Shown: positions 3,859-27,928, counted from the first letter of the stretch. The stretch: 64,000 bases of DNA from a virus (IMGVR_UViG_3300032323_001800:32001-96000), one strand, 5' to 3'. Numbers and translations are program-made. Notes: generated by a model not told the origin, from the letters alone.

Positions 3859-3898
3859 GAGAAAGGTTTGATCAGCCATAAATGATTATATTGGTGTT

Positions 3899-3916
3899 TG
3901 CGAGCCCTAAGTCGCA
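3899..3916 (+). promoter_or_regulatory. Hairpin adjacent to the polymerase RBS (putative translational operator)
   Basis: TGCGA-gccctaag-TCGCA (5-bp stem, 8-nt loop) immediately 5' of TAAGGAG...ATG 3928. Confidence 0.45.
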
Positions 3917-3927
3917 TAAGGAGAAAT

Positions 3928-6600
3928 ATGAGTTACGTAGATGCTTTTTATAGCAGAGATACAGACATCGTCTCGGTAGTTGAGCGAGATGACAAAGGAA
4001 AAAGACATTTCCGAGAATATCCTGCAAAATATGTCTTTTATTATCCAGACGCTAAAGGAAAATATACTAGCGTATATGGAGATCAACTAAGCAGAGTCAG
4101 CTGCAAAAATCTTAAAGAATTTCATAAAGAGTTAAGAATTCACAGTAATTCTAAACTATTTGAATCTGACATTAATCCAATCTTTAGAACACTAGAAGAC
4201 AACTATCTAAATGCCGATGCTCCGAAACTTAACGTTGCATGGTTTGATATTGAAGTAGATTTTGATCCAGAACGTGGATACGCATCACCTGATGATGCGT
4301 TTATGCCAATCACTGCTATTGCTGTGTATCTTCAATGGATGGACACTATGGTTTGTTTGGCGGTTCCTCCGAAAACAATGACCATGGATCAAGCTCAAGA
4401 GACTGTAAAAGAATTTACTAACACAATGTTGTTTGACAACGAAGCAGACATGTTAGATACATTTTTAGATCTAATTCAAGATGCTGATGTGTTAAGTGGT
4501 TGGAATTCAGAAGGCTTTGATATTCCCTATACTGTCAATCGTGTTACTAAGGTTCTCAGCAAAGAAGATACAAGAAGATTTTGTCTCTGGGATCAAATGC
4601 CTAAAAAACGTGAATACGAAAAATACGGCAAGGCTGCTGTAACTTATGACTTTTACGGTCGTGTGCATCTTGACAGTCTCGAATTATATAGAAAATACAC
4701 TTATGAAGAACGACATAGTTACAGACTTGACGCCATTGCTGAATACGAACTAGGCGAAACTAAAACACAGTACGAAGGTACATTAGATCAGTTATATAAC
4801 AATGATTTTAAAAAGTTCATTGAATATAACCGCCAAGACTGTATGCTATTAGAAAAACTAGACAGAAAACTAAAATTTTTAGATCTAGCAAATAAACTAG
4901 CACACGAAAACACAGTATTGCTACAAACTACAATGGGTGCCGTTGCTGTTACTGAACAAGCTATTATTAACGAAGCACATCGTAGAGGAATGATTGTTCC
5001 TAATCGTAAAAAGCGAGACGACGAAGTATCTACCCAAGCTGCCGGTGCGTATGTTGCTTATCCTAAAAAAGGCATTCACGAATGGATTGGCTCAGTGGAT
5101 CTTAACTCACTATATCCTTCAGCGATTCGTGCCTTAAACATGGGTCCAGAAACTATTGTTGGACAGTTACGTCCAGACTATACTAAAAATTACATCGAAG
5201 AACAAATGACGCGGCATGGTAAATCGTTTGCTGGTGCGTGGGAAGGATTGTTTTCTTCGTTTGAATATCAGTATGTTATGGAACGAAACGTTGCTAAAGA
5301 AATTACCATTGACTGGGAAGATGGTGGTAGTGATACGCTAAGTGGTGCTCAGATCTATGATTTGATCTTTGAAAGTAATCAACCCTGGATGGTTTCATCT
5401 AATGGTACAATCTTTACCTATGACAAAGACGGAATTATTCCAGGACTGTTAGCTCGCTGGTACAAAGAACGTAAAGAAATGCAGGCCAAACTTAAAGAAT
5501 GTATCGTGGCAGGTAATAAAGTTGAAGAAGAATACTGGGACAAACGTCAGCTGGTCAAAAAAATTAACTTAAACTCATTATATGGTGCTATTCTTAACCC
5601 TGGCTGTAGATTCTTTGACAATCGCATTGGTCAATCAACTACATTAACTGGTAGAACAATTACCAAACACATGGCGTCAAAAATTAACGAAATTATCACA
5701 GGTGAATACGACTACAAAGGTAAGTCGATCATTTATGGTGACACAGATTCTTGTTATTTTTCAGCGTATCCGGTGCTGAAGAAAGAAATTGAAACCGGAA
5801 AACTTCCTTGGACTAAAGAAACGGTGGTAACTTTATATGATCAAATCGCAGACGAAGTCAATTCCAGCTTTATTAAACTCATGCAGGACAGTTTCCATTG
5901 TCCAAAAACAAGAGGAGATGTTATCAAAGCAGGTCGAGAGATTGTCGCATCAAAGGGTCTGTTCATTACTAAGAAGCGATATGCCGTACTCTACTATGAA
6001 AAAGAAGGCAAGCGAGCAGATGTAGAGGGCAAACCAGGCAAGATCAAAGCCATGGGTCTTGATCTTAAACGTTCAGATACTCCTGTAGTCATTCAAGACT
6101 TCTTAAGTGAAGTTTTAACTCGGGTGCTAAATGGCGCAGGTAAGGAAGAAGTGCTGGAATACATTACTGAATTCCGTACTGAGTTCAAAACTAGACCTGG
6201 TTGGGAGAAAGGATCGCCCAAACGTGCTAACAATATCTCGCAATATCGCGACAAAGAAAAGAAAGCAGGCAAGACTAACATGCCCGGACACGTTCGAGCT
6301 GCTCTTAACTGGAACACTTTGAAGCGTATGAACGGTGACAAGTATTCTGTAGCCATAACAGACGGTGCTAAAGTCATTGTCTGTAAGGTTAAAGATAATC
6401 CAATGGGTTATACATCAGTGGCGTATCCAGTAGATGAACTTAGACTACCACAATGGTTTAAGGACTTACCGTTTGATGACGCTGAAATGGAAAGTACTGT
6501 TATTGATGAAAAGCTGGAAAACCTTATCGGTGTTCTAGAATGGGACATTAGTCGAACACGAAGTGACAACAACTTCAACAAATTATTTGATTTTGAATAA
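3928..6600 (+). CDS. DNA polymerase family B
   Basis: Exo motifs FDIEVD, WNSEGFDIPY, YNRQDC. Pol motifs SVDLNSLYPS, KKINLNSLYG, YGDTDS. Start moved to ATG 3928 on the basis of the SD. Confidence 0.97.
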   Translation: MSYVDAFYSRDTDIVSVVERDDKGKRHFREYPAKYVFYYPDAKGKYTSVYGDQLSRVSCKNLKEFHKELRIHSNSKLFESDINPIFRTLEDNYLNADAPKLNVAWFDIEVDFDPERGYASPDDAFMPITAIAVYLQWMDTMVCLAVPPKTMTMDQAQETVKEFTNTMLFDNEADMLDTFLDLIQDADVLSGWNSEGFDIPYTVNRVTKVLSKEDTRRFCLWDQMPKKREYEKYGKAAVTYDFYGRVHLDSLELYRKYTYEERHSYRLDAIAEYELGETKTQYEGTLDQLYNNDFKKFIEYNRQDCMLLEKLDRKLKFLDLANKLAHENTVLLQTTMGAVAVTEQAIINEAHRRGMIVPNRKKRDDEVSTQAAGAYVAYPKKGIHEWIGSVDLNSLYPSAIRALNMGPETIVGQLRPDYTKNYIEEQMTRHGKSFAGAWEGLFSSFEYQYVMERNVAKEITIDWEDGGSDTLSGAQIYDLIFESNQPWMVSSNGTIFTYDKDGIIPGLLARWYKERKEMQAKLKECIVAGNKVEEEYWDKRQLVKKINLNSLYGAILNPGCRFFDNRIGQSTTLTGRTITKHMASKINEIITGEYDYKGKSIIYGDTDSCYFSAYPVLKKEIETGKLPWTKETVVTLYDQIADEVNSSFIKLMQDSFHCPKTRGDVIKAGREIVASKGLFITKKRYAVLYYEKEGKRADVEGKPGKIKAMGLDLKRSDTPVVIQDFLSEVLTRVLNGAGKEEVLEYITEFRTEFKTRPGWEKGSPKRANNISQYRDKEKKAGKTNMPGHVRAALNWNTLKRMNGDKYSVAITDGAKVIVCKVKDNPMGYTSVAYPVDELRLPQWFKDLPFDDAEMESTVIDEKLENLIGVLEWDISRTRSDNNFNKLFDFE

Positions 6601-6607
6601 AAAATAT

Positions 6608-6636
6608 TTGCTTTTTACTCACAATCTAAATATAAT
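6608..6636 (+). promoter_or_regulatory. Sigma70-type promoter overlapping a TAAATA late core
   Basis: TTGCTT(6608)-N17-TATAAT(6631). TAAATA at 6627-6632. Confidence 0.6.
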
Positions 6637-6661
6637 CTTAATATACACGGAGAAACTCTAA

Positions 6662-7399
6662 ATGAAAGATATTTTACAAGACATCGTATCACATACGCAA
6701 AATCTAGGCTTCTTAACTACAGTTAAAGTAACAGGCGCTGAAGATAAAACTCAAATTAACTCGATGGCAGATGACCGTTCAGTTATTATGGAAGCAGAAA
6801 CTGCTGCTCCGTATCCAGACATGATTGGTGTGTTTGGTATGCCACAGCTACAAAAACTAAAGTATTTGTTAGAAGGCGCAGAGTACAAGGAAGATGCTAA
6901 GATTAGTATCACTACAGCAGAACGCAACGGAGAAACTATTCCAGTTGGTCTTCACTTTGAAAACAAAGATGGTGACTTCAAGAACGATTATCGCTTTATG
7001 AATTCCGAGATCATTAACGAAAAAATGAAAACCGTTAAATTCCGCGGAGTTAAGTGGGATGTTGAGATCGAACCTAGCGTCAGTGCTGTTCAGCGTTTCA
7101 ACTTCCAAGCAGGTGCTAATAGCGAACATCCAACTTTCTTAGCAAAGACTGATGGTGGCAATCTAAAGTTTATCTTTGGTGATGCGAGCACACACGGTGG
7201 TGAGTTTATTTTTGCACAAAACGTTGCAGGTAAATTAGATCGTGGTTGGACTTGGCCTGTATTACCAATCCTTGCTATTCTTAAAATTGCGGATGTTAAT
7301 AATACTAAGATGTCCTTGAGTAATGAAGGTGCTATTCAAATTACTTTAGACAGCGGCCTAGCATCTTACAAATATATCATTCCAGCACAAGCAGCGTAA
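6662..7399 (+). CDS. DNA polymerase sliding clamp (gp45/PCNA-like)
   Basis: 245 aa with an alternating beta/alpha clamp-like pattern, C-terminal YKYIIPA, and position directly after the polymerase. Confidence 0.7.
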   Translation: MKDILQDIVSHTQNLGFLTTVKVTGAEDKTQINSMADDRSVIMEAETAAPYPDMIGVFGMPQLQKLKYLLEGAEYKEDAKISITTAERNGETIPVGLHFENKDGDFKNDYRFMNSEIINEKMKTVKFRGVKWDVEIEPSVSAVQRFNFQAGANSEHPTFLAKTDGGNLKFIFGDASTHGGEFIFAQNVAGKLDRGWTWPVLPILAILKIADVNNTKMSLSNEGAIQITLDSGLASYKYIIPAQAA

Positions 7400-7400
7400 T

Positions 7401-7772
7401 ATGATTAAAGGTATTAATTCTAGCAGTAGATACATTACAGTATCTGGAGGATCTCCATCAAACACATATATCAGTCCTGGCTCTGTTGGGGCTGGTATGA
7501 TCCGGTGGAATCCAAATATGAACTGTATGGAAGTCAATGACGGAAATATGTGGAAAACGCTTGACATGTCTTATGCCTCTGTAGAATTAACGTCCGATGC
7601 CGAATCGTTGCTTGAATGGGCACGTAAAAAGCGTGACAAAGAAACAACATTATATGCCCTAGCTGAAAAAAATTCTGCTGTTAAAATAGCATTAGACAAC
7701 TTAGAACAGGCACAACAACAATTAGAAATTACAGCACATTTAGCGAGAGAACATGAACAAACAACCAGTTGA
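7401..7772 (+). CDS. Hypothetical protein
   Basis: 123 aa with a C-terminal coiled coil, coupled to the clamp and dpdA genes. Confidence 0.75.
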   Translation: MIKGINSSSRYITVSGGSPSNTYISPGSVGAGMIRWNPNMNCMEVNDGNMWKTLDMSYASVELTSDAESLLEWARKKRDKETTLYALAEKNSAVKIALDNLEQAQQQLEITAHLAREHEQTTS

Positions 7773-9282
7773 TTTAACACCATTACAAAAAGACTATGCT
7801 GTCTATTTGCCAGCAATTAGTTCTTTCTATTCTACATACGTTGCTAAACAACGACTAGAAGAATTTATTCCTAAAGATCGTATTCCTAAAGACTTTGATC
7901 GTGGCATTGAAGGTATGAACTTCCTAAATCCCGAACAAGGTTATTTTTACTACAAGTACGGTTTATATTCAGCAGGTCACGCACAACTAGATCTTGAAAA
8001 GTCAATGACTCAAGAGTCAATGATACAAGATCGCGATCGTTCAAAGACAATGATTCTAGGTGACTCCGGTGGATATCAGATTGGTAAAGGTGTTCTTAAG
8101 TTTGATTGGTTAAACTTTGAAGGTCCAGAAGCTACAAAGACTCGTCAAAAGATTCTTGAGTGGTTAGAACTAACTGCTGATTGGTCAATGATGCTGGACG
8201 TTCCGACATGGGCCTGCGATCATATCCATAGTCCAAAGACTGGTTTAAAAACATTTGAGGACTGTCTAGAAAAAACTCGTTACAACAACGACTACTTTCT
8301 AATGAATCGTTTAGGTCAAACTAAATGGTTAAACGTGCTACAGGGTTCGGACTGGGATACAGCAGAACGCTGGTATCAAGGTGTTAAAGAGTTTTCAGAT
8401 CCTAAAGGCAAATACGCTGGTCGAGAAGCTGAAGGTTGGGCAATGGGTGGCGCTAACATGTGTAAGATGCCAATTACACTACGTAGATTAATTACATTAA
8501 AATTTGATGGCTTGCTAGAAGGCAAGGATTGGATGCACTTCTTGGGCACAGCACAGTTGGATTGGGCTTGTTATCTAACATTGATCCAAAGACAAATTAG
8601 AAAACACGTAAATGAAAACTTCACAATTTCCTTTGACTGCGCATCACCTTTCATCGCAACAGCTCACGGATTGGTATATACTAACGCCCAGCACACCAAT
8701 AAGCGATTCTCTGTTATCATGGATAAAGCCCCGGACACTAAGAGTCTTGCCGGACGGCAGGATATACCTTTTCCTTTCGAAAGCGATTTTGGTCGCAGAC
8801 TTACGATCGCAGATATTTGTTACTACGCACCAGGAATGTTGAATAAGATTGGCAAAGAAGGTAAAACATCTTGGGATTCATTTGCTTATGCTCTAATGAT
8901 GGGCCATAATGTTGAATGTCATATCCGTGCTGTTCAACGTGCCTGTAATCTAATGGACATCGAATTAGCAAAACACAATCCGAACTGGCGACAATACACT
9001 AAACCTAGCAGTAAAGAAGTTAATATGCATGAATACTCCGAATGGGTTCCTCGCAATATACTTTACTTTGCAGGGTTTATTGAAGAATTGTTTGAATGTA
9101 AGACTAAAGAAGATGCTTTCCAAATGATCAAAGATGCAGACTTCTTTTTAAAGAATCTTGAAGGTGCTCGATTAAGAGGCGGTGTTACCAACGAGTTTAA
9201 TCGATTGTTCAGCGACGATGATAGTTCAGATTGGGACAATGATCGAGAAGATGATAAATTGGATAGTCTTAAAGTAGAATAA
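7753..9282 (+). CDS. dpdA: TGT-family transglycosylase (DpdA-like 7-deazaguanine DNA insertion enzyme)
   Basis: TGT motifs GDSGGYQ, MMLDVP, VLQG, AMGG, HFLG, SFDCAS and late GHN. folE and queE are nearby. Confidence 0.8.
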   Translation: MNKQPVDLTPLQKDYAVYLPAISSFYSTYVAKQRLEEFIPKDRIPKDFDRGIEGMNFLNPEQGYFYYKYGLYSAGHAQLDLEKSMTQESMIQDRDRSKTMILGDSGGYQIGKGVLKFDWLNFEGPEATKTRQKILEWLELTADWSMMLDVPTWACDHIHSPKTGLKTFEDCLEKTRYNNDYFLMNRLGQTKWLNVLQGSDWDTAERWYQGVKEFSDPKGKYAGREAEGWAMGGANMCKMPITLRRLITLKFDGLLEGKDWMHFLGTAQLDWACYLTLIQRQIRKHVNENFTISFDCASPFIATAHGLVYTNAQHTNKRFSVIMDKAPDTKSLAGRQDIPFPFESDFGRRLTIADICYYAPGMLNKIGKEGKTSWDSFAYALMMGHNVECHIRAVQRACNLMDIELAKHNPNWRQYTKPSSKEVNMHEYSEWVPRNILYFAGFIEELFECKTKEDAFQMIKDADFFLKNLEGARLRGGVTNEFNRLFSDDDSSDWDNDREDDKLDSLKVE

Positions 9283-12189: not shown

Positions 12190-13249
12190 GATATTTTTAG
12201 TCGATCTCGAAGCTGTTGAGACTCGTTACACAGGCGAGTGGAAAGTCCATTTGCCTGAGTTACTAAGAAAGAGAGGACACGATGTTCAAGTTATATCTGG
12301 CCCTACGGATATTCCTACTGCCACTACTCCTGGTGCTTTTCTTAACTTTGGTGGCACCAATATATACAAGGCTAGTCAGGTTGAGCAGATGGGCCGTTTA
12401 TTTTGTAGTGGATCTGTTCATCCTGGCGACCACTTTATTTTTACTGACGCTTGGCATCCGGGCATTATAAATTTAAAGTACATGAGTGAATTGCTGGGCA
12501 TCCCAGTAACAACACATGGCCTATGGCATGCTGGAAGTTATGATCCTCAAGATTTCTTAGGACGACTTGTTGGTGATAAGCCTTGGGTAAGACATGCTGA
12601 GAAAAGTTTTTATGAAGCATTTGATCATAACTACTTTGCCACAGACTTTCATATCGAAATGTTCTTTAAGAACTTGTTTGATACAAAAGTAATTGCTGGC
12701 GCTGATTTTGATGGCAAAGTAGTACGTACAGGGTGGCCAATGGAGTATATGCCTGATACGTTGCTGATGTATAAGAACATGCCCAAGCGTGATCTTATCT
12801 TGTTCCCACATCGTATTGCTCCTGAGAAGCAGGTTGAAATATTCCGTGACTTAAAAGAACACTTACCACAATATGAGTTCGTTGTTTGTCAAGATCAACA
12901 ACTTACAAAAAATGAATATCATAACTTGCTAGGTGAAGCTAAACTAGTATTCAGTGCCAACTTACAAGAAACACTAGGTATCAGTTGGTATGAAGGTGCG
13001 TTAGTTGATGCTATTCCTATGGTGCCAGATCGATTAAGCTATAGTGAAATGGCCTTAGACGAATTTAAGTATCCTTCAGAATGGACTGAATCATTTAAAT
13101 CGTATCAAATACACAGACACTCATTAGTAGAAAAGATTGTAAATTATATGGAAAATTATAAACAATTTCTACCTCGCCTAAATACTCAGGTAACATCTTT
13201 AACGGATAACTTTTTCAGTTGCGATCAACTATTAAAGATGTTAAAATAA
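12182..13249 (+). CDS. GT-B glycosyltransferase (GT4-like)
   Basis: HRIAPEK and E-x7-E (ETLGISWYE) donor-binding motifs, 355 aa. Confidence 0.85.
   Translation: MAKIFLVDLEAVETRYTGEWKVHLPELLRKRGHDVQVISGPTDIPTATTPGAFLNFGGTNIYKASQVEQMGRLFCSGSVHPGDHFIFTDAWHPGIINLKYMSELLGIPVTTHGLWHAGSYDPQDFLGRLVGDKPWVRHAEKSFYEAFDHNYFATDFHIEMFFKNLFDTKVIAGADFDGKVVRTGWPMEYMPDTLLMYKNMPKRDLILFPHRIAPEKQVEIFRDLKEHLPQYEFVVCQDQQLTKNEYHNLLGEAKLVFSANLQETLGISWYEGALVDAIPMVPDRLSYSEMALDEFKYPSEWTESFKSYQIHRHSLVEKIVNYMENYKQFLPRLNTQVTSLTDNFFSCDQLLKMLK
13219..13247 (+). promoter_or_regulatory. Sigma70-type promoter for folE
   Basis: TTGCGA(13219)-N17-TAAAAT(13242), with TGn extension. Confidence 0.5.
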
Positions 13250-13290: not shown

Positions 13291-14055
13291 TTGACAGAAT
13301 CAAGAACATACCAAAACATACTTGCCGGAGTAGAACAGCAAGGCGATGACAACAAAGATTATAAAGAAGCATACCTAGCAGACGTAATTCGCTTTAAAAT
13401 GAAACGTGACCAAAAGCGTTTCTGGGCAGGTGACAATGTATCGGACTATGTCACTGAAGAAATGAAGCACAAACTCATCGACGAAGCAACAGAAGCATTT
13501 GAATTAGTGCTTGATCGGTTGTTAATCGATCGTGAGAATGATCCTAATAGTCAAGGCACAGCAAGACGACTGGCCAAGATGTACTTTAACGAAATCATGA
13601 GTGGCCGATATGACCCAGCACCAGACGCAACCGCATTCCCCAATGACACAGAAGACCGTTACGAAGGTATGTTGGTTGTTCGTAGTGAGCTTCGCAGTAT
13701 GTGTAGCCATCATCATCAACCTGTGGCTGGCGTTGCTTATATTGGTATTATTGCGGCTTCCAAGCTCATTGGCCTCTCTAAATACACCCGCATCGCACAG
13801 TGGTGTGCAAGACGTGGTACTCTCCAGGAGGAACTTGCTAATGATATTGCTCGCGAGATCGCCAAAGCCACTGGAGCCAAAGACGTAGGCGTATATGTAC
13901 AAGCCGTACATGGCTGCTGTGAGAATCGCGGAATTATGGCACATTCAAGTCTAACACAGACAACAGTATTAAAGGGTGCGTTCAAAGATGACACTAGTAC
14001 AAAGAAAGAATTCTTTGACAACATTAAACTACAACAAGACTTTGCTCCGAGGTAA
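13291..14055 (+). CDS. folE: GTP cyclohydrolase I
   Basis: SMCSHHHQP, IGLSKYTRIA, LQEEL, HGCCENRG. TTG start after SD GGAG. Confidence 0.95.
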   Translation: MTESRTYQNILAGVEQQGDDNKDYKEAYLADVIRFKMKRDQKRFWAGDNVSDYVTEEMKHKLIDEATEAFELVLDRLLIDRENDPNSQGTARRLAKMYFNEIMSGRYDPAPDATAFPNDTEDRYEGMLVVRSELRSMCSHHHQPVAGVAYIGIIAASKLIGLSKYTRIAQWCARRGTLQEELANDIAREIAKATGAKDVGVYVQAVHGCCENRGIMAHSSLTQTTVLKGAFKDDTSTKKEFFDNIKLQQDFAPR

Positions 14056-14058
14056 TAT

Positions 14059-14274
14059 ATGAACTCAGTAGATATGGCTAACGATCTAATTAATCGTGCT
14101 AGAAACTTAAAGAAGTTTGAAGTGAAACGTATGCTAGAAGATGGCATCTTATTCAACGGTCCTGTACCTTTTGATATCAAAGGCCGAGATGATTGCTATT
14201 GGATATATGCCTATGCTGTTACACAAGAAGAAGCAGAAGCACAAGTAGATATGTGGCTAAGCGATCGAACATGA
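14059..14274 (+). CDS. Hypothetical protein
   Basis: 71 aa, SD GAGGT. Confidence 0.7.
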   Translation: MNSVDMANDLINRARNLKKFEVKRMLEDGILFNGPVPFDIKGRDDCYWIYAYAVTQEEAEAQVDMWLSDRT

Positions 14275-14696
14275 TTCACCCGTTGCTAGATGAACTGATG
14301 GTCCAACAACAGTTGCCAGCCGCTGATCGTCGAGAGTGGGCATGGCAGCACATGGTGGCTGTGATCATGCTAAATCAAACCGGAAGGAAGGCGGTGAAAT
14401 ATGTACTGCCTCTTTTCTTAGATCGTTGGCCAACTCCAGAAGAGTTTTTATGGACAACGGATGACGAAGTCAAAGAAGTAATTTGGCCTTTGGGCATGTA
14501 CAATGTCCGTTTCCAACGACTCAAACGTATGACCGCAGATTTTTTGACTTGGGACGGAAATGATGCTACAATGTTATACGGCATCGGCAAGTATGGTTCA
14601 GATAGTTATGAGATTTTTTTCAAAAAAAACTATGTAGTCCAACCCACTGATAAAGAACTCAAACGCTACTTGAAAGAGGAAATATATGTTTCTTAA
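14271..14696 (+). CDS. MBD4-like HhH DNA glycosylase
   Basis: WQHMVAVIMLNQT, PLGMYNVR, HhH LYGIGKYGSDSYEIF with catalytic Asp, PTDKELKRY. Start set at the coupled ATG 14271. Confidence 0.8.
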   Translation: MIHPLLDELMVQQQLPAADRREWAWQHMVAVIMLNQTGRKAVKYVLPLFLDRWPTPEEFLWTTDDEVKEVIWPLGMYNVRFQRLKRMTADFLTWDGNDATMLYGIGKYGSDSYEIFFKKNYVVQPTDKELKRYLKEEIYVS

Positions 14697-15147
14697 ACTG
14701 CTAGAACGATTAGGTCGTAAGCGTATTATTATGGATAGGCTCAGTAACGAACCTTATCTAGAACGATACTACCTATTTCTCAAAGAGAGAACTCTCTTTC
14801 CATTTAACATATTTTTACACAAGTTCTTAAAAGGTGATCCGGACGATGTTCATGATCATCCGTGGCCTTATGCTACATTGATTTTGCGAGGTGGATACTA
14901 TGAATGGATTCCTATTTTTAATACTATCGGCGAAAAAATTAATGAATGTAAAGTTTGGAGAGGTCCTGGTCATTTCCGTATCTGCTCTTCTTCTAGTTAT
15001 CATCGCATTGAGCTAAAAGAAGGTGTAACAGCTTGGACATTGTTTATGCCCGGTCCCCACAAACGCGAATGGGGTTTCTTAGTTAATAACAAGTGGGTGC
15101 AACACGATCAATACCTTAAGGATAGACATGAACAAGCTCATAATTAA
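14686..15147 (+). CDS. Cupin-fold (DSBH) protein
   Basis: HDHPW...ILRGGYYE...HRIEL metal-binding pattern. Confidence 0.65.
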   Translation: MFLKLLERLGRKRIIMDRLSNEPYLERYYLFLKERTLFPFNIFLHKFLKGDPDDVHDHPWPYATLILRGGYYEWIPIFNTIGEKINECKVWRGPGHFRICSSSSYHRIELKEGVTAWTLFMPGPHKREWGFLVNNKWVQHDQYLKDRHEQAHN

Positions 15148-15688
15148 CAACGATCAATTAAAAAATTTAGTTACTAAACTCTGTCGAGACATTACTCTCA
15201 GCGGATGGCAACCTGAATACGTAGTAGGTCTAACCAGAGGTGGTTTAACTCCTGCTGTTATGATCAGTCACTACTTCAACGTACCATGCGAAACCTTAAA
15301 AGTTAGCCTACGTGACGGCGGCGAACCAGAAAGTAATTTATGGATGGCTGAAGATGCATTTGGATACACCTCTAAAGAAGTTGATTTCTTTGAAGGTAAT
15401 CCTATGGAATTGATTAACGAGGGCCGAGCTAAAGAAATATTAATTGTTGATGATATTAACGATTCGGGTGCTACTATAAACTGGATTATGAAAGACTGGC
15501 CTAGTGGTTGTTTTCCTGATGATCCTGTGTGGAAAGAAGTGTGGAACAACAATGTCCGCTTTGCTGTGTTAGTGGATAATCTTGCCAGTCAATGTAATGC
15601 TAAAATGGATTATGTTGGCATGGAAATTAACAAAGCAGAAAACGATGTATGGGTTGATTTTCCCTGGGAAGATTGGTGGCAGAAATGA
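15128..15688 (+). CDS. Purine phosphoribosyltransferase (Gpt/XGPRT-like)
   Basis: VGLTRGG and PRPP loop ILIVDDINDSGAT. Confidence 0.88.
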   Translation: MNKLIINNDQLKNLVTKLCRDITLSGWQPEYVVGLTRGGLTPAVMISHYFNVPCETLKVSLRDGGEPESNLWMAEDAFGYTSKEVDFFEGNPMELINEGRAKEILIVDDINDSGATINWIMKDWPSGCFPDDPVWKEVWNNNVRFAVLVDNLASQCNAKMDYVGMEINKAENDVWVDFPWEDWWQK

Positions 15689-15789: not shown

Positions 15790-16016
15790 TTGATGCAAAA
15801 GTAAAAGTACATTGCACTGACGCTGGTAAAGATTTTGAAATGCATGTGTTAGCATATAAACCCAAGACATTTTTAGATGTTGCGTTTCAAACTCTTAAAA
15901 TTCGTTTAGCATATATAGAACGTACAAAAGCGTTTAGAGGTAGTCTAGGTGGTAGAGAATTTGTTATTCGAGAAGAAGATCTTCCACAGGAAAATCGCAA
16001 GGAGTATCAGAGATGA
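15786..16016 (+). CDS. Hypothetical protein
   Basis: 76 aa, coupled. Confidence 0.7.
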   Translation: MIDAKVKVHCTDAGKDFEMHVLAYKPKTFLDVAFQTLKIRLAYIERTKAFRGSLGGREFVIREEDLPQENRKEYQR

Positions 16017-16414
16017 AATCTAACGATACCAATAAAGTTATGCTAGCCCAACCCAACTGTATCGAAGATTCAAAAGCACCATGGGATGATCTTGTAGAGC
16101 AAGATTTTCATGTTAAGGTGTTTGCTGATAAGTATCCTGTCACTGACGGCCACTTGTTGTTCGTACCTAAATATAACACAGTTCATGTACTAATGGATTG
16201 TTTTCATGATGCTGTTCAAGACGGTATTAAAAGAGTACAACTAGGTGAGTGGGACGGATTTAACGTTGGATTTAATTACGGGCAAGCTGCTGGTCAAACA
16301 GTAGATTGGCCACATGTACATCTTATCCCTAGACGCAAGGGAGATATGGAAGACCCCACAGGAGGGGTGCGTCACGTAATACCTGAAAAGGGAAACTATA
16401 GGAAATCAAAATGA
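16013..16414 (+). CDS. HIT-family nucleotide hydrolase
   Basis: GHLLFVPK, GFNVGFNYGQAAGQTV, PHVHLIPRRKGD. The first triad His is replaced by Trp. Confidence 0.88.
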   Translation: MKSNDTNKVMLAQPNCIEDSKAPWDDLVEQDFHVKVFADKYPVTDGHLLFVPKYNTVHVLMDCFHDAVQDGIKRVQLGEWDGFNVGFNYGQAAGQTVDWPHVHLIPRRKGDMEDPTGGVRHVIPEKGNYRKSK

Positions 16415-16801: not shown

Positions 16802-17043
16802 CAGATAGAATAATAATTGCAGTATTATTAATTTTTTCTGTTTATGTTTTAATTTCTACCGACTTTGGTAGAAATACAGTAGTGCGATACGACTGTAGAG
16901 ATGCGCATTGGCACCCGGATATTCCTATAGAAGTTAAAAAAGAATGTTCTAAATTATTCTACAAAGAATGGAAAAAACAAGAAGATGAAAGAAAAAATGA
17001 TCCAAGCATACATGAAAACAGCCGAGACCTTCTCAGAACTTAG
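16798..17043 (+). CDS. Membrane-anchored hypothetical protein
   Basis: N-terminal TM segment and two Cys. Confidence 0.6.
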   Translation: MTDRIIIAVLLIFSVYVLISTDFGRNTVVRYDCRDAHWHPDIPIEVKKECSKLFYKEWKKQEDERKNDPSIHENSRDLLRT

Positions 17044-17500
17044 TCATGCTCGTCGATTACATGTTGGTGCTATTGTAGTGAAAGATGATAGAATTATCAG
17101 TATTGGCTATAACGGTATGCCTAGTGGGTGGGATAATAACTGCGAAGATAAAATATGGGATTCGGGCGCAGGCGGGTGGTTGAGTCCTGAAGAGATTATA
17201 GAACAATATCCGTATGAAGGATGGCACGAGGCCGCACAGCGTGATGTGCGCTACGGATTAAAAACTAAACCAGAGGTACTACATGCTGAAACTAATGCCA
17301 TTGCCAAATTGGCTAAATCTAACGAATCTGGTATGGGTGCTACTATGTTTATTACCCATGCTCCATGTTTGGATTGTGCCAAACTTATCTACCAAAGTGG
17401 TATTAGCAGTGTTCTATATCGGAACGCTTATAGGGATACTAGCGGTATTACGTTTCTTGAAAAATCGGGGGTAAAAGTTGAACAATACAATAAAGACTAG
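16985..17500 (+). CDS. dCMP deaminase
   Basis: VGAIVVKDDRIISIGYNG, HAETNAI, THAPCLDC. Confidence 0.92.
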   Translation: MKEKMIQAYMKTAETFSELSHARRLHVGAIVVKDDRIISIGYNGMPSGWDNNCEDKIWDSGAGGWLSPEEIIEQYPYEGWHEAAQRDVRYGLKTKPEVLHAETNAIAKLAKSNESGMGATMFITHAPCLDCAKLIYQSGISSVLYRNAYRDTSGITFLEKSGVKVEQYNKD

Positions 17501-17657
17501 TTGGACTCTTACTGTTGAAGAAGATTCCGACACCGGAGATGCAATAATTCAATTTCCTCCAGATCTGTTAGAGCAAGCAGGATGGAAAGAGGGCGACACA
17601 TTAATTTGGAAAGACCGGGGCGATGGCTCTTGGCTTTTAGAGAAAAAGAGTGTATAA
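17478..17657 (+). CDS. AbrB/SpoVT-like small DNA-binding protein (59 aa, not in the ORF track)
   Basis: TTG start after GGGGG. WTLTVEED..GDAIIQFPPDLLEQAGWKEGDTLIW fits the swapped-hairpin pattern. Confidence 0.65.
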   Translation: MNNTIKTSWTLTVEEDSDTGDAIIQFPPDLLEQAGWKEGDTLIWKDRGDGSWLLEKKSV

Positions 17658-17658
17658 T
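17630..17658 (+). promoter_or_regulatory. Sigma70-type promoter for queE
   Basis: TTGGCT(17630)-N17-TATAAT(17653). ATG 17665 follows after 6 nt. Confidence 0.55.
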
Positions 17659-17664
17659 AGTAAT

Positions 17665-18528
17665 ATGAGTAAAATTAAAATCGCAGAGCTGTTTTACAGC
17701 ATTCAAGGTGAAGGACGCTACATGGGTGTCCCGTCTGTATTTCTACGCACATTTGGTTGTAACTTTAAGTGTGCAGGCTTTGGAATGCCTCGTGATACAA
17801 TCAGTATCGAGGCAGATGACATTGCATACACACACGCAAATATCGAATCGTTTCAAAAATATGAAGACTTGCCGTTAGTTAGCACAGGTTGTGACAGTTA
17901 TGCTTCATGGCATCCTGCGTTCAAAGATTTGTCGCCATTGCTTACTAGCGATGCTATTGTAGAACGTACTATGGAAATTCTTCCTGGTAACAAATGGGGC
18001 GATGCTCACTTGGTTATTACAGGTGGCGAGCCGTTGCTAGGTTGGCAACGTGCTTATCCAGACTTGTTAGAACATCCTAAGATGGGGGATTTAAAAGAGA
18101 TTACTTTTGAAACAAACGGTACTCAAAAATTAAGCGAAGAATTTAAAGAATATCTAGTAAAATGGCAAATGCCTAATTTAGATTTTGCTAGAGAAGTTAC
18201 ATTTAGTGTAAGTGCTAAACTTCCATGTAGTGGTGAGAAATGGGAAGAAGCAATTCTTCCAGAAGTAGTTTGCGAGTATGAAGAAGTTGGTACAGCATAT
18301 TTGAAGTTTGTTATTGCCACTGAACAAGACTTTAAAGACGCAGAGTGTGCTATTGCCGCTTATCGTAAAGCAGGATTCAAAGGGCATGTTTATCTAATGC
18401 CAGTGGGCGGTGTTGAAAGTGTATATGCACTAAACAATCGCACAGTAGCAGACCTAGCAATGAAAAACGGTCTTCGTTACAGTGATAGATTGCAGGTGCC
18501 GTTATTTAAAAACGAGTGGGGGACATAA
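17665..18528 (+). CDS. queE: 7-carboxy-7-deazaguanine synthase (radical SAM)
   Basis: IAELFYSIQGEGRYMGVPSVFLRTFGCNFKC...GCDS, LVITGGEPLL, FETNGT, RYSDRLQVPLF. Confidence 0.9.
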   Translation: MSKIKIAELFYSIQGEGRYMGVPSVFLRTFGCNFKCAGFGMPRDTISIEADDIAYTHANIESFQKYEDLPLVSTGCDSYASWHPAFKDLSPLLTSDAIVERTMEILPGNKWGDAHLVITGGEPLLGWQRAYPDLLEHPKMGDLKEITFETNGTQKLSEEFKEYLVKWQMPNLDFAREVTFSVSAKLPCSGEKWEEAILPEVVCEYEEVGTAYLKFVIATEQDFKDAECAIAAYRKAGFKGHVYLMPVGGVESVYALNNRTVADLAMKNGLRYSDRLQVPLFKNEWGT

Positions 18529-26493: not shown

Positions 26494-27083
26494 TCGAAAG
26501 CACATCCATATGTTTTAAATGTTTTTCTTGTATAAAAACTTAAATTAGAACTATAAAGAAAATCAAAATCTATTTTACTGATACGAGAAATAACTTCGTT
26601 AGTATCATTTAGATCTTCAAAATTAAATTTAAATGATTCATACAATACATTTATATCATCTTTTTTAGTAGCATATACTGTTATGCTACTTTCTTTTTTA
26701 TCGATAAGATCTTTTTTAGATCCGTTATATGTTACTATTAAATGCGGGATGTTATCTATAGAACATATTTTTAAAACAACATCAAATAAACTTATTGTTT
26801 CTAATCTCACAAACGGGATTTTATAAAAAGAATTATAGTCTGAATCTAATTGTATATCAAATTTATCAACTACTTTTAAGAGAGAACTATCGAGGTCTAT
26901 TTTGTAATTAGACATCTTTTTATTGCACAATAAAAAATCTTGATATAGCTCTATATAATTTTCAGTTACAACAATAAACGATTCATTGACATTTATGTTA
27001 TCGGTTGGATTAACCGACGATAAAGACCGTATATCACCGGTGCTGCTATTATATACAAAATAAAATTTATCTTCAGATGTCAT
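26490..27083 (-). CDS. Hypothetical protein
   Basis: 197 aa, very AT-rich, coupled within the GT operon. Confidence 0.7.
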   Translation of the reverse strand: MTSEDKFYFVYNSSTGDIRSLSSVNPTDNINVNESFIVVTENYIELYQDFLLCNKKMSNYKIDLDSSLLKVVDKFDIQLDSDYNSFYKIPFVRLETISLFDVVLKICSIDNIPHLIVTYNGSKKDLIDKKESSITVYATKKDDINVLYESFKFNFEDLNDTNEVISRISKIDFDFLYSSNLSFYTRKTFKTYGCAFE

Positions 27084-27928
27084 AATTTAAAATTTAATTT
27101 CATTTTTTGATTATATCCGTCAAACAAATTAGAAAAATCTAAATCTTTTTCAACATAATGTATTATGTCGTATTGATGGAATGAACCTATTTTATACTCA
27201 TCAATATTATTTGTGTAAAACCCAATGTCTCGAGACCACTTAAATATTGGAGTTTTTAAATTTTGAATCATTGGTTTCATATGAACAAACTTAGGAAACT
27301 CTAACGGATGTGATATTTGATCTTGTATATCCAACAACTGTGCCGCTAAAGAAAAGATTTCGTCCGTGCCCATTTCGTTTGGCTTTTCTTTTTCTAAAAA
27401 CATATTTTTAAATTCTTCTTTTTGATTTGTAATGGCCTGTACCAACTCAAAAAAATCTCGAACCATATAAGATTCTTTTTTAAAAAATGTGTATGCTGAA
27501 TACAAATTAGGCAAATTGTTTTCTTTATAGATTTTCCTATAATAATCGCTGGTTACTATTTCATTTCTGTAAGTCAATACATTAGATGCTATATACATTT
27601 CGCAGTTTTCAACAAAATAATCAATCCAATGGCTAGTATCTCTCATAAAAATCATATCAGCATCTAAACACACTGTATGTTTCCATGGTGAAATTTTATT
27701 CATATAGGATCGACCGTCCCAGTGAGTTTGCTTGTCCCAGTATTCAACTTTATCAAACGCCCATGAGGTTTTATATAATTCAAGTTTTTTTACGTTATCA
27801 GTTACTAACGCAACATTATCGTATCCTGCCTTTTGAGTTCGTTTTATAGACAACGCCAATAGATGAGCCATAGCATGGTAATCATGAATTCCGTCATCCG
27901 ATACTATTATTAAATAACCAAAACTCAC
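27080..27928 (-). CDS. GT-A (GT8-like) glycosyltransferase
   Basis: LALSIK, TVCLDADMIF (DxD), NLYSAYTFFKK, DEIFSLA, FVHMKP. Confidence 0.7.
   Translation of the reverse strand: MSFGYLIIVSDDGIHDYHAMAHLLALSIKRTQKAGYDNVALVTDNVKKLELYKTSWAFDKVEYWDKQTHWDGRSYMNKISPWKHTVCLDADMIFMRDTSHWIDYFVENCEMYIASNVLTYRNEIVTSDYYRKIYKENNLPNLYSAYTFFKKESYMVRDFFELVQAITNQKEEFKNMFLEKEKPNEMGTDEIFSLAAQLLDIQDQISHPLEFPKFVHMKPMIQNLKTPIFKWSRDIGFYTNNIDEYKIGSFHQYDIIHYVEKDLDFSNLFDGYNQKMKLNFKL

Follow-up and report, generated by a model that had tools for sequence, protein, structure and literature searches.

In phage RB69, residues 883-903 of the DNA polymerase gp43 bind a hydrophobic pocket of the sliding clamp gp45 that is flanked by two basic residues (PDB 1b8h; PMC3012046). 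Two further clamp clients, gp55 and gp33, bind via hydrophobic-acidic termini carried on unstructured linkers of variable length (PMC2988020). The RB69 gp55 sequence ends SLDFLYEDDN. A phage DNA-modification enzyme has also been associated with a clamp: T4 alpha-glucosyltransferase (alpha-GT) co-purifies with gp45, and modification concomitant with replication was proposed (Sommer et al. 2004; PMC13216743). In a 2026 re-test, the level of modification by this enzyme was found not to depend mainly on clamp binding (PMC13216743). Insertion of modified bases by the DpdA transglycosylases has been treated as post-replicative, with efficiencies of <0.1% to 100% depending on the subfamily and with some subfamilies not reconstituted in E. 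coli; the paper makes no mention of a clamp (Hutinet et al., NAR 2023, PMC10516641), and a literature search combining DpdA with "sliding clamp" returned only incidental co-mentions. Here we analyzed 64,000 nucleotides of viral DNA (the window), positions 32001-96000 of a single 187,929-bp viral contig of about 53% completeness as estimated by CheckV. Within the window a putative DpdA-like DNA guanine transglycosylase of 509 residues and the DNA polymerase carry nearly the same C-terminal peptide, and a predicted sliding clamp is encoded between them. Comparison of this gene pair across its relatives lends good support to tethering of the transglycosylase to the clamp through the shared peptide, the binding itself being predicted. 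Coordinates are window positions unless stated otherwise.

The genes lie on the plus strand in the order polymerase (3898-6600), clamp candidate (6662-7399), a small open reading frame (ORF, 7401-7772) and transglycosylase-like gene (7753-9282), and these coordinates agree with the order given in an earlier note on this DNA. The polymerase peptide, NNFNKLFDFE (residues 891-900, 6568..6597), is a predicted clamp-binding motif that directly precedes the stop codon (6598-6600). Its copy in the transglycosylase, NEFNRLFS (residues 480-487, 9190..9213), is likewise predicted to bind the clamp and runs on into an acidic sequence (NEFNRLFSDDD). Translation of 3898-6600 and 7753-9282 reproduced exactly the two strings that the earlier note had placed at 6568-6600 (with the stop codon) and 9190-9213. 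The codons used at the shared residues differ (polymerase/transglycosylase ttc/ttt, aac/aat, aaa/cga, tta/ttg and ttt/ttc), indicating that the likeness is at the protein level and that there was no recent DNA duplication. In the AlphaFold2 model of the 509-residue protein (mean predicted local distance difference test score, pLDDT, 89.5; predicted template-modeling score, pTM, 0.88) pLDDT falls below 50 over one long stretch only, residues 475-500, which comes after the last helices of the fold. The motif thus lies outside the predicted fold, in the likely disordered tail that had been anticipated, rather than being buried, which would have told against a binding role. The acidic tail beyond it comprises 22 residues, 11 of which are Asp or Glu (residues 488-509, 9214..9279), and terminates in a conserved amphipathic helix, DDKLDSLKVE (9253..9276), of the family pattern [DE][DE]..L..LE.

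The motif is only five to eight residues long, an LF dipeptide is found in about 10% of the C-terminal tails of the genome (20/197) and two look-alike strings in glycosyltransferase-like genes are chance occurrences (see below), all of which would favor a mere coincidence of two low-information C-terminal strings with no common function. We consider such a coincidence highly improbable, given that the motif is unique to the gene pair in two genomes, is conserved across 142 loci and shows, in five lineages, LF-to-FF switches matched between the two proteins. Among the 197 ORFs (61,784 residues) of a crude contig proteome, FNxLF occurs solely in the polymerase and the transglycosylase; the looser FxxLF occurs eight times, three of them within 40 residues of a C terminus. 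The second genome is that of Vibrio phage 2.275.O, the polymerase of which ends NNTDLFDW and the transglycosylase homologue NNNDLFGW. A degenerate DNA pattern for DLF[DG]W plus a stop codon matched the complete 349-kb sequence exactly twice, at the ends of these same two genes, and the control gave 0 matches. In the Pseudomonas phage PA5oct the polymerase ends HFDSLFGW, and the transglycosylase homologue contains NSFNSLFDVD followed by a 28-residue tail.

The wider sample was obtained from three transglycosylase-seeded scans of IMG/VR plus one seeded on a distant clamp, which together gave 142 non-redundant three-gene loci. The viral-contig scan seeded with clamp representative P0142 returned no loci and that seeded with P0150 did. 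The order polymerase, clamp, transglycosylase was found in 142/142 loci and also in PA5oct and Vibrio phage 2.275.O, with median intergenic gaps across the 142 loci of 60 nt between polymerase and clamp and 328 nt between clamp and transglycosylase, the latter gap being <100 nt in 52/142 loci. Among 50,697 phage records, tblastn with the transglycosylase matched only PA5oct-like phages, Vibrio phage 2.275.O and Sinorhizobium phage Phosso; the 240-residue gene upstream of the Phosso homologue showed no relation to the clamp profile in hhalign.

Conservation of the motif in DpdA homologues, a check that the earlier note had proposed, holds in most tails. An [LF]F dipeptide was present within the last 12 residues of the polymerase in 101/101 non-redundant relatives, and all polymerases of the 142 loci end x-F-x-x-[LF]-F-x-[FW] or in a near variant. 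The pattern F..[LF]F was found in the last 50 residues of 60/101 transglycosylase homologues versus 2/195 background proteins, and a broader hydrophobic-F-polar motif in 98/101 versus 51/195. This conservation extends across the 142 loci down to about 30% identity. Two tail architectures were seen. In the first, the motif stands at the very C terminus, like that of the polymerase (Vibrio phage 2.275.O, loci L086, L093, L113, L147 and L196 and many of L214-L293), and in the second, which is that of most lineages, it is followed by an acidic tail of 25-35 residues. Most relatives with a tail beyond the motif have an ending of the [DE][DE]..L..LE type (DDDELRALEE in many; the tails of L001, L016, L092, L109, L123, L138 and others), which is absent wherever the clamp-type motif is itself terminal and which occurs once in the contig, in this protein. 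The terminal acidic helix may be a site for a second partner or a DNA-mimicking auto-inhibitor.

The two peptides also change together. In permutation tests that drew one representative per cluster, cognate polymerase and transglycosylase 8-mers resembled each other more closely than shuffled pairs did (20-28 clusters, p about 0.0005-0.002; 10 clusters, p 0.002-0.04); tails in which the motif remained misplaced add only noise against co-variation. The strongest signal came from the residue preceding the invariant Phe, which in the polymerase changed from Leu to Phe in five separate lineages. Three of these switches were taken as independent from a quick IQ-TREE tree of the transglycosylase core of the first data set, and the other two (L274 and L291) come from an independent clade. 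In the five lineages with a polymerase FF the transglycosylase motif has FF, FF, HF, FF and FF, whereas only two Leu lineages have FF in the transglycosylase (lineage-level Fisher p 0.0008-0.0014). Some pairs are near copies (polymerase/transglycosylase): both proteins of L086 and of L093 end FFEF, L144 has TFNKFFKF/NFKKFFSP and L274 has FDSFFSFE/INEFFSFN. A further FF pair is QFFK/KFFD in L291. The clamp changes as well. Its residue 224, Ala in this window, is Ala in most Leu lineages and L, L, V, L and L in the five Phe lineages (lineage tests: non-Ala p 0.004-0.04; Leu p 0.003-0.01), and in the predicted structure it starts the third-from-last strand of clamp domain 2. Across 113 clamp representatives this column holds A 48, L 20, I 13, V 12 and M 9, a variability that suggests many pocket variants, from the loci of which the partner motifs might be read out.

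Co-variation of the motifs shows a common partner but not which partner it is, and the signal at clamp residue 224 is modest and permissive only. Both tails might therefore bind a shared protein other than the clamp, such as a single-strand-binding protein, a helicase/primase or a factor of the replication compartment, the motif then being a mark of replisome membership. There is precedent in phage T7, in which gp4 and gp2.5 contact the polymerase through acidic tails that end in Phe. We think this explanation unlikely, however. The polymerase is a homologue of RB69/T4 gp43 with the same tail architecture, and in those phages the tail binds the clamp; the clamp gene lies between the two motif-bearing genes in 142/142 loci; the make-up of the motif, hydrophobic plus acidic, is that of the known gp45 epitopes; and clamp residue 224 has changed in all five FF lineages. 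The 900-residue protein encoded at 3898..6600 (counted from TTG 3898) is a T4/RB69-type family B DNA polymerase by its matches to Pfam DNA_pol_B (3e-35) and DNA_pol_B_exo1 (1e-18) and to phrog_262 (1e-205). Its C-terminal 300 residues align with residues 617-851 of RB69 gp43 (E 1.5e-17), a similar stretch remains beyond the thumb in both proteins and the RB69 tail KKASLFDMFDF occupies the same terminal position as NNFNKLFDFE. Note that although the longest ORF opens at TTG 3898, the ATG at 3928 (MSYVDAFY...) is the likelier start, as the family alignment sets in only near residue 10. In PA5oct (MK797984.1, L001 1605-6831) the polymerase gene is split in two by a Hef-like homing endonuclease gene, and its second part encodes the clamp-type motif.

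The product of the gene following the polymerase (6662..7399, plus strand, 245 residues) has the predicted fold of a two-domain, PCNA-like clamp protomer. The AlphaFold2 monomer, computed with an alignment of 113 diverse relatives, has pLDDT 96.5 and pTM 0.92 and is built of two similar helix-and-sheet domains. In Foldseek, the 50 best matches to the model were PCNA or viral clamps without exception (probability 1.00, TM 0.6-0.7). By sequence the protein had no match in Pfam and matched only phrog_12062 ("unknown function") among the PHROGs, and hhalign of the clamp profile with RB69 gp45 paired only domains that do not correspond (probability 14%), so that residue 224 has no aligned counterpart in the gp45 pocket. 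By its modeled fold the 245-residue protein is a sliding clamp, as the earlier note had called it, and presumably forms a ring-shaped trimer that encircles DNA. A candidate clamp loader is encoded elsewhere on the contig by an AAA+ gene outside the window (G000:C1:17299-18219); the 307-residue product matches PF00004, PF13177 (DNA_pol3_delta2) and Rad17 and has an RFC-like N terminus, W.EKYRP. The small ORF between the clamp and transglycosylase genes (7401..7772, plus strand) encodes a protein of 123 residues of unknown function that is not present in every relative.

The transglycosylase assignment depends on structure, since the 509-residue protein (7753..9282, plus strand) gave no match in Pfam (including PF01702, the tRNA-guanine transglycosylase (TGT) family), NCBIfam or PHROG. 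The Pfam and NCBIfam searches were empty for four family members at E 10, and neither single-sequence nor profile queries found anything useful among PDB sequences. Foldseek searches with the model returned only TGTs as top matches (probability 1.00, E about 1e-7), and VIA-align superposed residues 12-446 on bacterial, archaeal and human TGTs with Z 18.5-19.9 over about 300 residues at root-mean-square deviations of 4.5-4.9. In BFVD the structural neighbors were viral models annotated as TGT/queuine tRNA-ribosyltransferase and phage DpdA, with phiST DpdA3 at E 3.7e-4. Two motifs stand out among 42 diverse homologues. The first, DSGGYQ (residues 104-109, 8062..8079), is DSGG[FY]Q across the family, with D104, S105, G106, G107 and Q109 invariant down to 37% identity; we take it to be the equivalent of the DSGGFQ of the Zymomonas mobilis TGT that contains a catalytic aspartate. 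The second, SFDCASP (residues 293-299, 8629..8649), has invariant D295, S298 and P299 and presumably corresponds to the TGT nucleophile motif MFDCV. D104 and D295 would then be the counterparts of TGT Asp102 and Asp280. Membership in the TGT/DpdA superfamily is supported by the modeled fold, and "DpdA-like" is a reasonable functional label from the predicted fold plus the genomic context; the name DpdA given by the earlier note is thus functional, and the TGT fold and the catalytic-type motifs behind it held up. Membership in the DpdA3 subfamily was rejected, the DpdA3 of Cellulophaga phage phiST (CGPG_00065) having 259 residues versus 509 and hhalign giving a probability of 29% over 91 columns. 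Even at E 10, tblastn with the 509-residue protein gave no match in Cellulophaga or Campylobacter phages. In the homologue of Vibrio phage 2.275.O (L002 7923-9713) the TGT barrel is interrupted by about 85 additional residues rich in Lys and Glu (alignment columns of about 300-383).

The same gene block encodes functions of 7-deazaguanine synthesis. GTP cyclohydrolase I (FolE), the first step of the pathway, is encoded at 13291..14055 (plus strand; Pfam PF01227, 5e-39) and a radical-SAM, QueE-like protein at 17650..18528 (plus strand). The latter matches Pfam Radical_SAM at 1.3e-05, below the curated cut-off, and the syntenic PA5oct gene is annotated as 7-carboxy-7-deazaguanine synthase. The neighbors of the transglycosylase homologue include QueE in PA5oct, and QueF, queuosine-biosynthesis genes and FolE in Vibrio phage 2.275.O. 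QueC was not seen among the ORFs scanned, and the inserted base may be other than preQ0. Four genes lie between those of FolE and the QueE-like protein (14193-14696, 15128-15688, 16013-16414 and 16985-17500); these encode HhH-GPD DNA-glycosylase superfamily, phosphoribosyltransferase, HIT-family and dCMP-deaminase-type proteins. In PA5oct, the cultured relative, the virion DNA resists restriction enzymes with G in the site. The pattern was interpreted as G modified in GA and/or GG contexts and not as total replacement, and the study identified QueE and a pterin synthase without naming a transglycosylase (PMC12191111). The PA5oct member of the present family, EST35_0316 (L001 7995-9617, "hypothetical protein"), is likely a TGT-fold enzyme and the missing transglycosylase responsible for the modified G.

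These data bear on a further explanation, in which the tail is regulatory and competes with the polymerase for clamp pockets (in polymerase exchange, pausing or a late switch), or in which a tRNA enzyme is merely localized by the clamp. The closest solved structures by fold are indeed tRNA enzymes, and a motif nearly identical to that of the polymerase would allow competition. However, 7-deazaguanine synthesis genes share the gene block, PA5oct DNA contains modified G with no other transglycosylase named there, phage DpdA-type models are among the structural neighbors and a tRNA enzyme has no evident need of a DNA clamp. We judge both forms of this explanation distinctly unlikely.

Taken together, we would put at roughly 0.7 the probability that the 509-residue protein is a divergent member of the TGT/DpdA family recruited to phage DNA by the clamp through a polymerase-like tail peptide. 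Most likely it replaces guanine bases of the phage DNA with a 7-deazaguanine derivative supplied by the products of the neighboring FolE/QueE-type genes. The TIM barrel (about residues 12-446) would be followed by a flexible tail that displays the x-F-N-x-L-F-acidic peptide. By analogy with RB69/T4 gp43, gp55 and gp33, the peptide would dock in a hydrophobic pocket of the trimeric, PCNA-like clamp that the phage itself encodes. Loaded by the phage clamp loader, the clamp would bring the transglycosylase to duplex that is being replicated or has just been replicated, and would allow one-dimensional scanning, which may raise the efficiency of modification. The transglycosylase could either share a ring with the polymerase, the trimer having three pockets, or act from clamps that stay on the DNA once the fork has passed.

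Several points weigh against this explanation or limit it. The clamp is the presumed partner of the peptides, and DNA rather than tRNA the presumed substrate. Of the earlier note's reading, a shared clamp-type peptide that is conserved and co-varies with the polymerase C terminus stood; the clamp as its partner and the processive modification of nascent DNA that the note had proposed stay conditional. About 15% of the homologues have weakened motif variants (MF, HF, VF, TF or LM). Three LF lineages also have Leu at clamp residue 224, so that the association is permissive only; its lineage-level p values are modest, and the correspondence of residue 224 to about the position of the PCNA pocket residue Pro234 is suggested by strand order in the model rather than by alignment. 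The PA5oct clamp homologue, EST35_0314 (L001 6912-7658), was annotated "structural protein" from virion mass spectrometry; as a homologue of the PCNA-fold clamp it is re-annotated here as a sliding clamp. TGT-type enzymes are slow. This slow turnover makes it unlikely that the transglycosylase keeps pace with a moving polymerase, and clamps left on the DNA fit better. Finally, phiST DpdA3, of the subfamily linked to complete replacement, has neither the motif nor such a tail. Complete replacement by an enzyme lacking the motif and the context-dependent modification of PA5oct both argue against generalizing the near-complete replacement of G that the earlier note had thought tethering could give, and the present findings do not support it.

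On balance we favor extending the explanation to a large, mostly uncultivated group of T4-like/jumbo phages (>590 IMG/VR loci, the PA5oct-like Pseudomonas phages and Vibrio phage 2.275.O) that probably couples base exchange to the replisome. The clamp client of this group would be an unrecognized DpdA subfamily of 500-600 residues, its peptide co-evolving with the polymerase peptide and the clamp pocket. The subfamily would provide the first clamp-tethered DNA transglycosylase and include the one missing from PA5oct. If so, the clamp-binding tail would be a concrete mechanism for recruiting DpdA enzymes to double-stranded DNA and would explain why heterologous tests lacking the phage clamp may fail. 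A base-exchange enzyme would also join the polymerase, gp55, gp33, ligase and alpha-GT among phage clamp clients. A function is thereby assigned to a gene family that is absent from model libraries, including EST35_0316 of PA5oct, a therapeutic-candidate jumbo phage the modified G of which is targeted by END nucleases. Moreover, the matched LF/FF switches form a natural specificity-swap system.

Similar strings elsewhere on the contig were considered as marks of other clamp clients. The FKNLFD string of the GT4 gene (12665-12682) is real, but is internal (residue 162 of 355), and the FSNLFD string of a 282-residue protein (27080-27928, minus strand), called GT8 in the earlier note, is real, but is absent from the only homologue found. 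Both were put down to chance, in keeping with the doubt originally expressed about them. A 659-residue protein ending NSALFGTYV was rejected as a clamp client, being a virion structural protein, as was a 556-residue protein with an internal FKSLFD. The latter (G000:C1:141446-143116, L295, outside the window) is a NodU/CmcH-type carbamoyltransferase matching Pfam Carbam_trans_N/C, in a phage that has a DNA-hypermodification cluster, and its string is a chance occurrence. A 270-residue protein of unknown family (G000:C1:112097-112909, L294, outside the window) has a low-complexity tail ending NKQSLFRK and is either a possible clamp client or another chance match.

A transglycosylase as clamp client would extend the known principle of clamp tethering to a gene family unnamed in current libraries. 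The closest counterpart of the locus is the RB69/T4 gp43-gp45 pair, with which it shares a T4-type family B polymerase, last residues (about 10) that are hydrophobic plus acidic (SLFDMFDF versus FNKLFDFE at the C terminus) and a phage-encoded clamp of the trimeric type. In contrast to that pair, the clamp here most resembles PCNA by fold and gave no sequence match, and the peptide is found also on a base-exchange enzyme. The gp55 and gp33 proteins of T4/RB69 are likewise non-polymerase clients with a short hydrophobic-acidic epitope on a flexible region. However, those clients are transcription factors rather than a DNA-modifying enzyme, and in most lineages the predicted epitope described here has a further acidic tail of 25-35 residues behind it, in which a second helix is conserved. 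T4 alpha-GT is, like the present protein in its proposed role, a phage DNA-modification enzyme associated with the sliding clamp, but it transfers sugar to hydroxymethylcytosine rather than exchanging a base, and no polymerase-like motif has been defined for it. In eukaryotes, a PCNA-interacting peptide (PIP)-type sequence on a flexible region couples the base-modifying or base-excising enzymes DNMT1 and UNG2 to PCNA, although the kingdom, the consensus (Qxx[LIM]xx[FY][FY]) and the reaction all differ. With the phage enzymes DpdA1-DpdA4 (Hutinet et al., NAR 2023, PMC10516641) the family shares the TGT-superfamily fold, neighbors of the FolE/QueD/QueE type and hosts that are 7-deazaguanine DNA phages, whereas its members have about 500-600 residues versus the 259 of phiST DpdA3.

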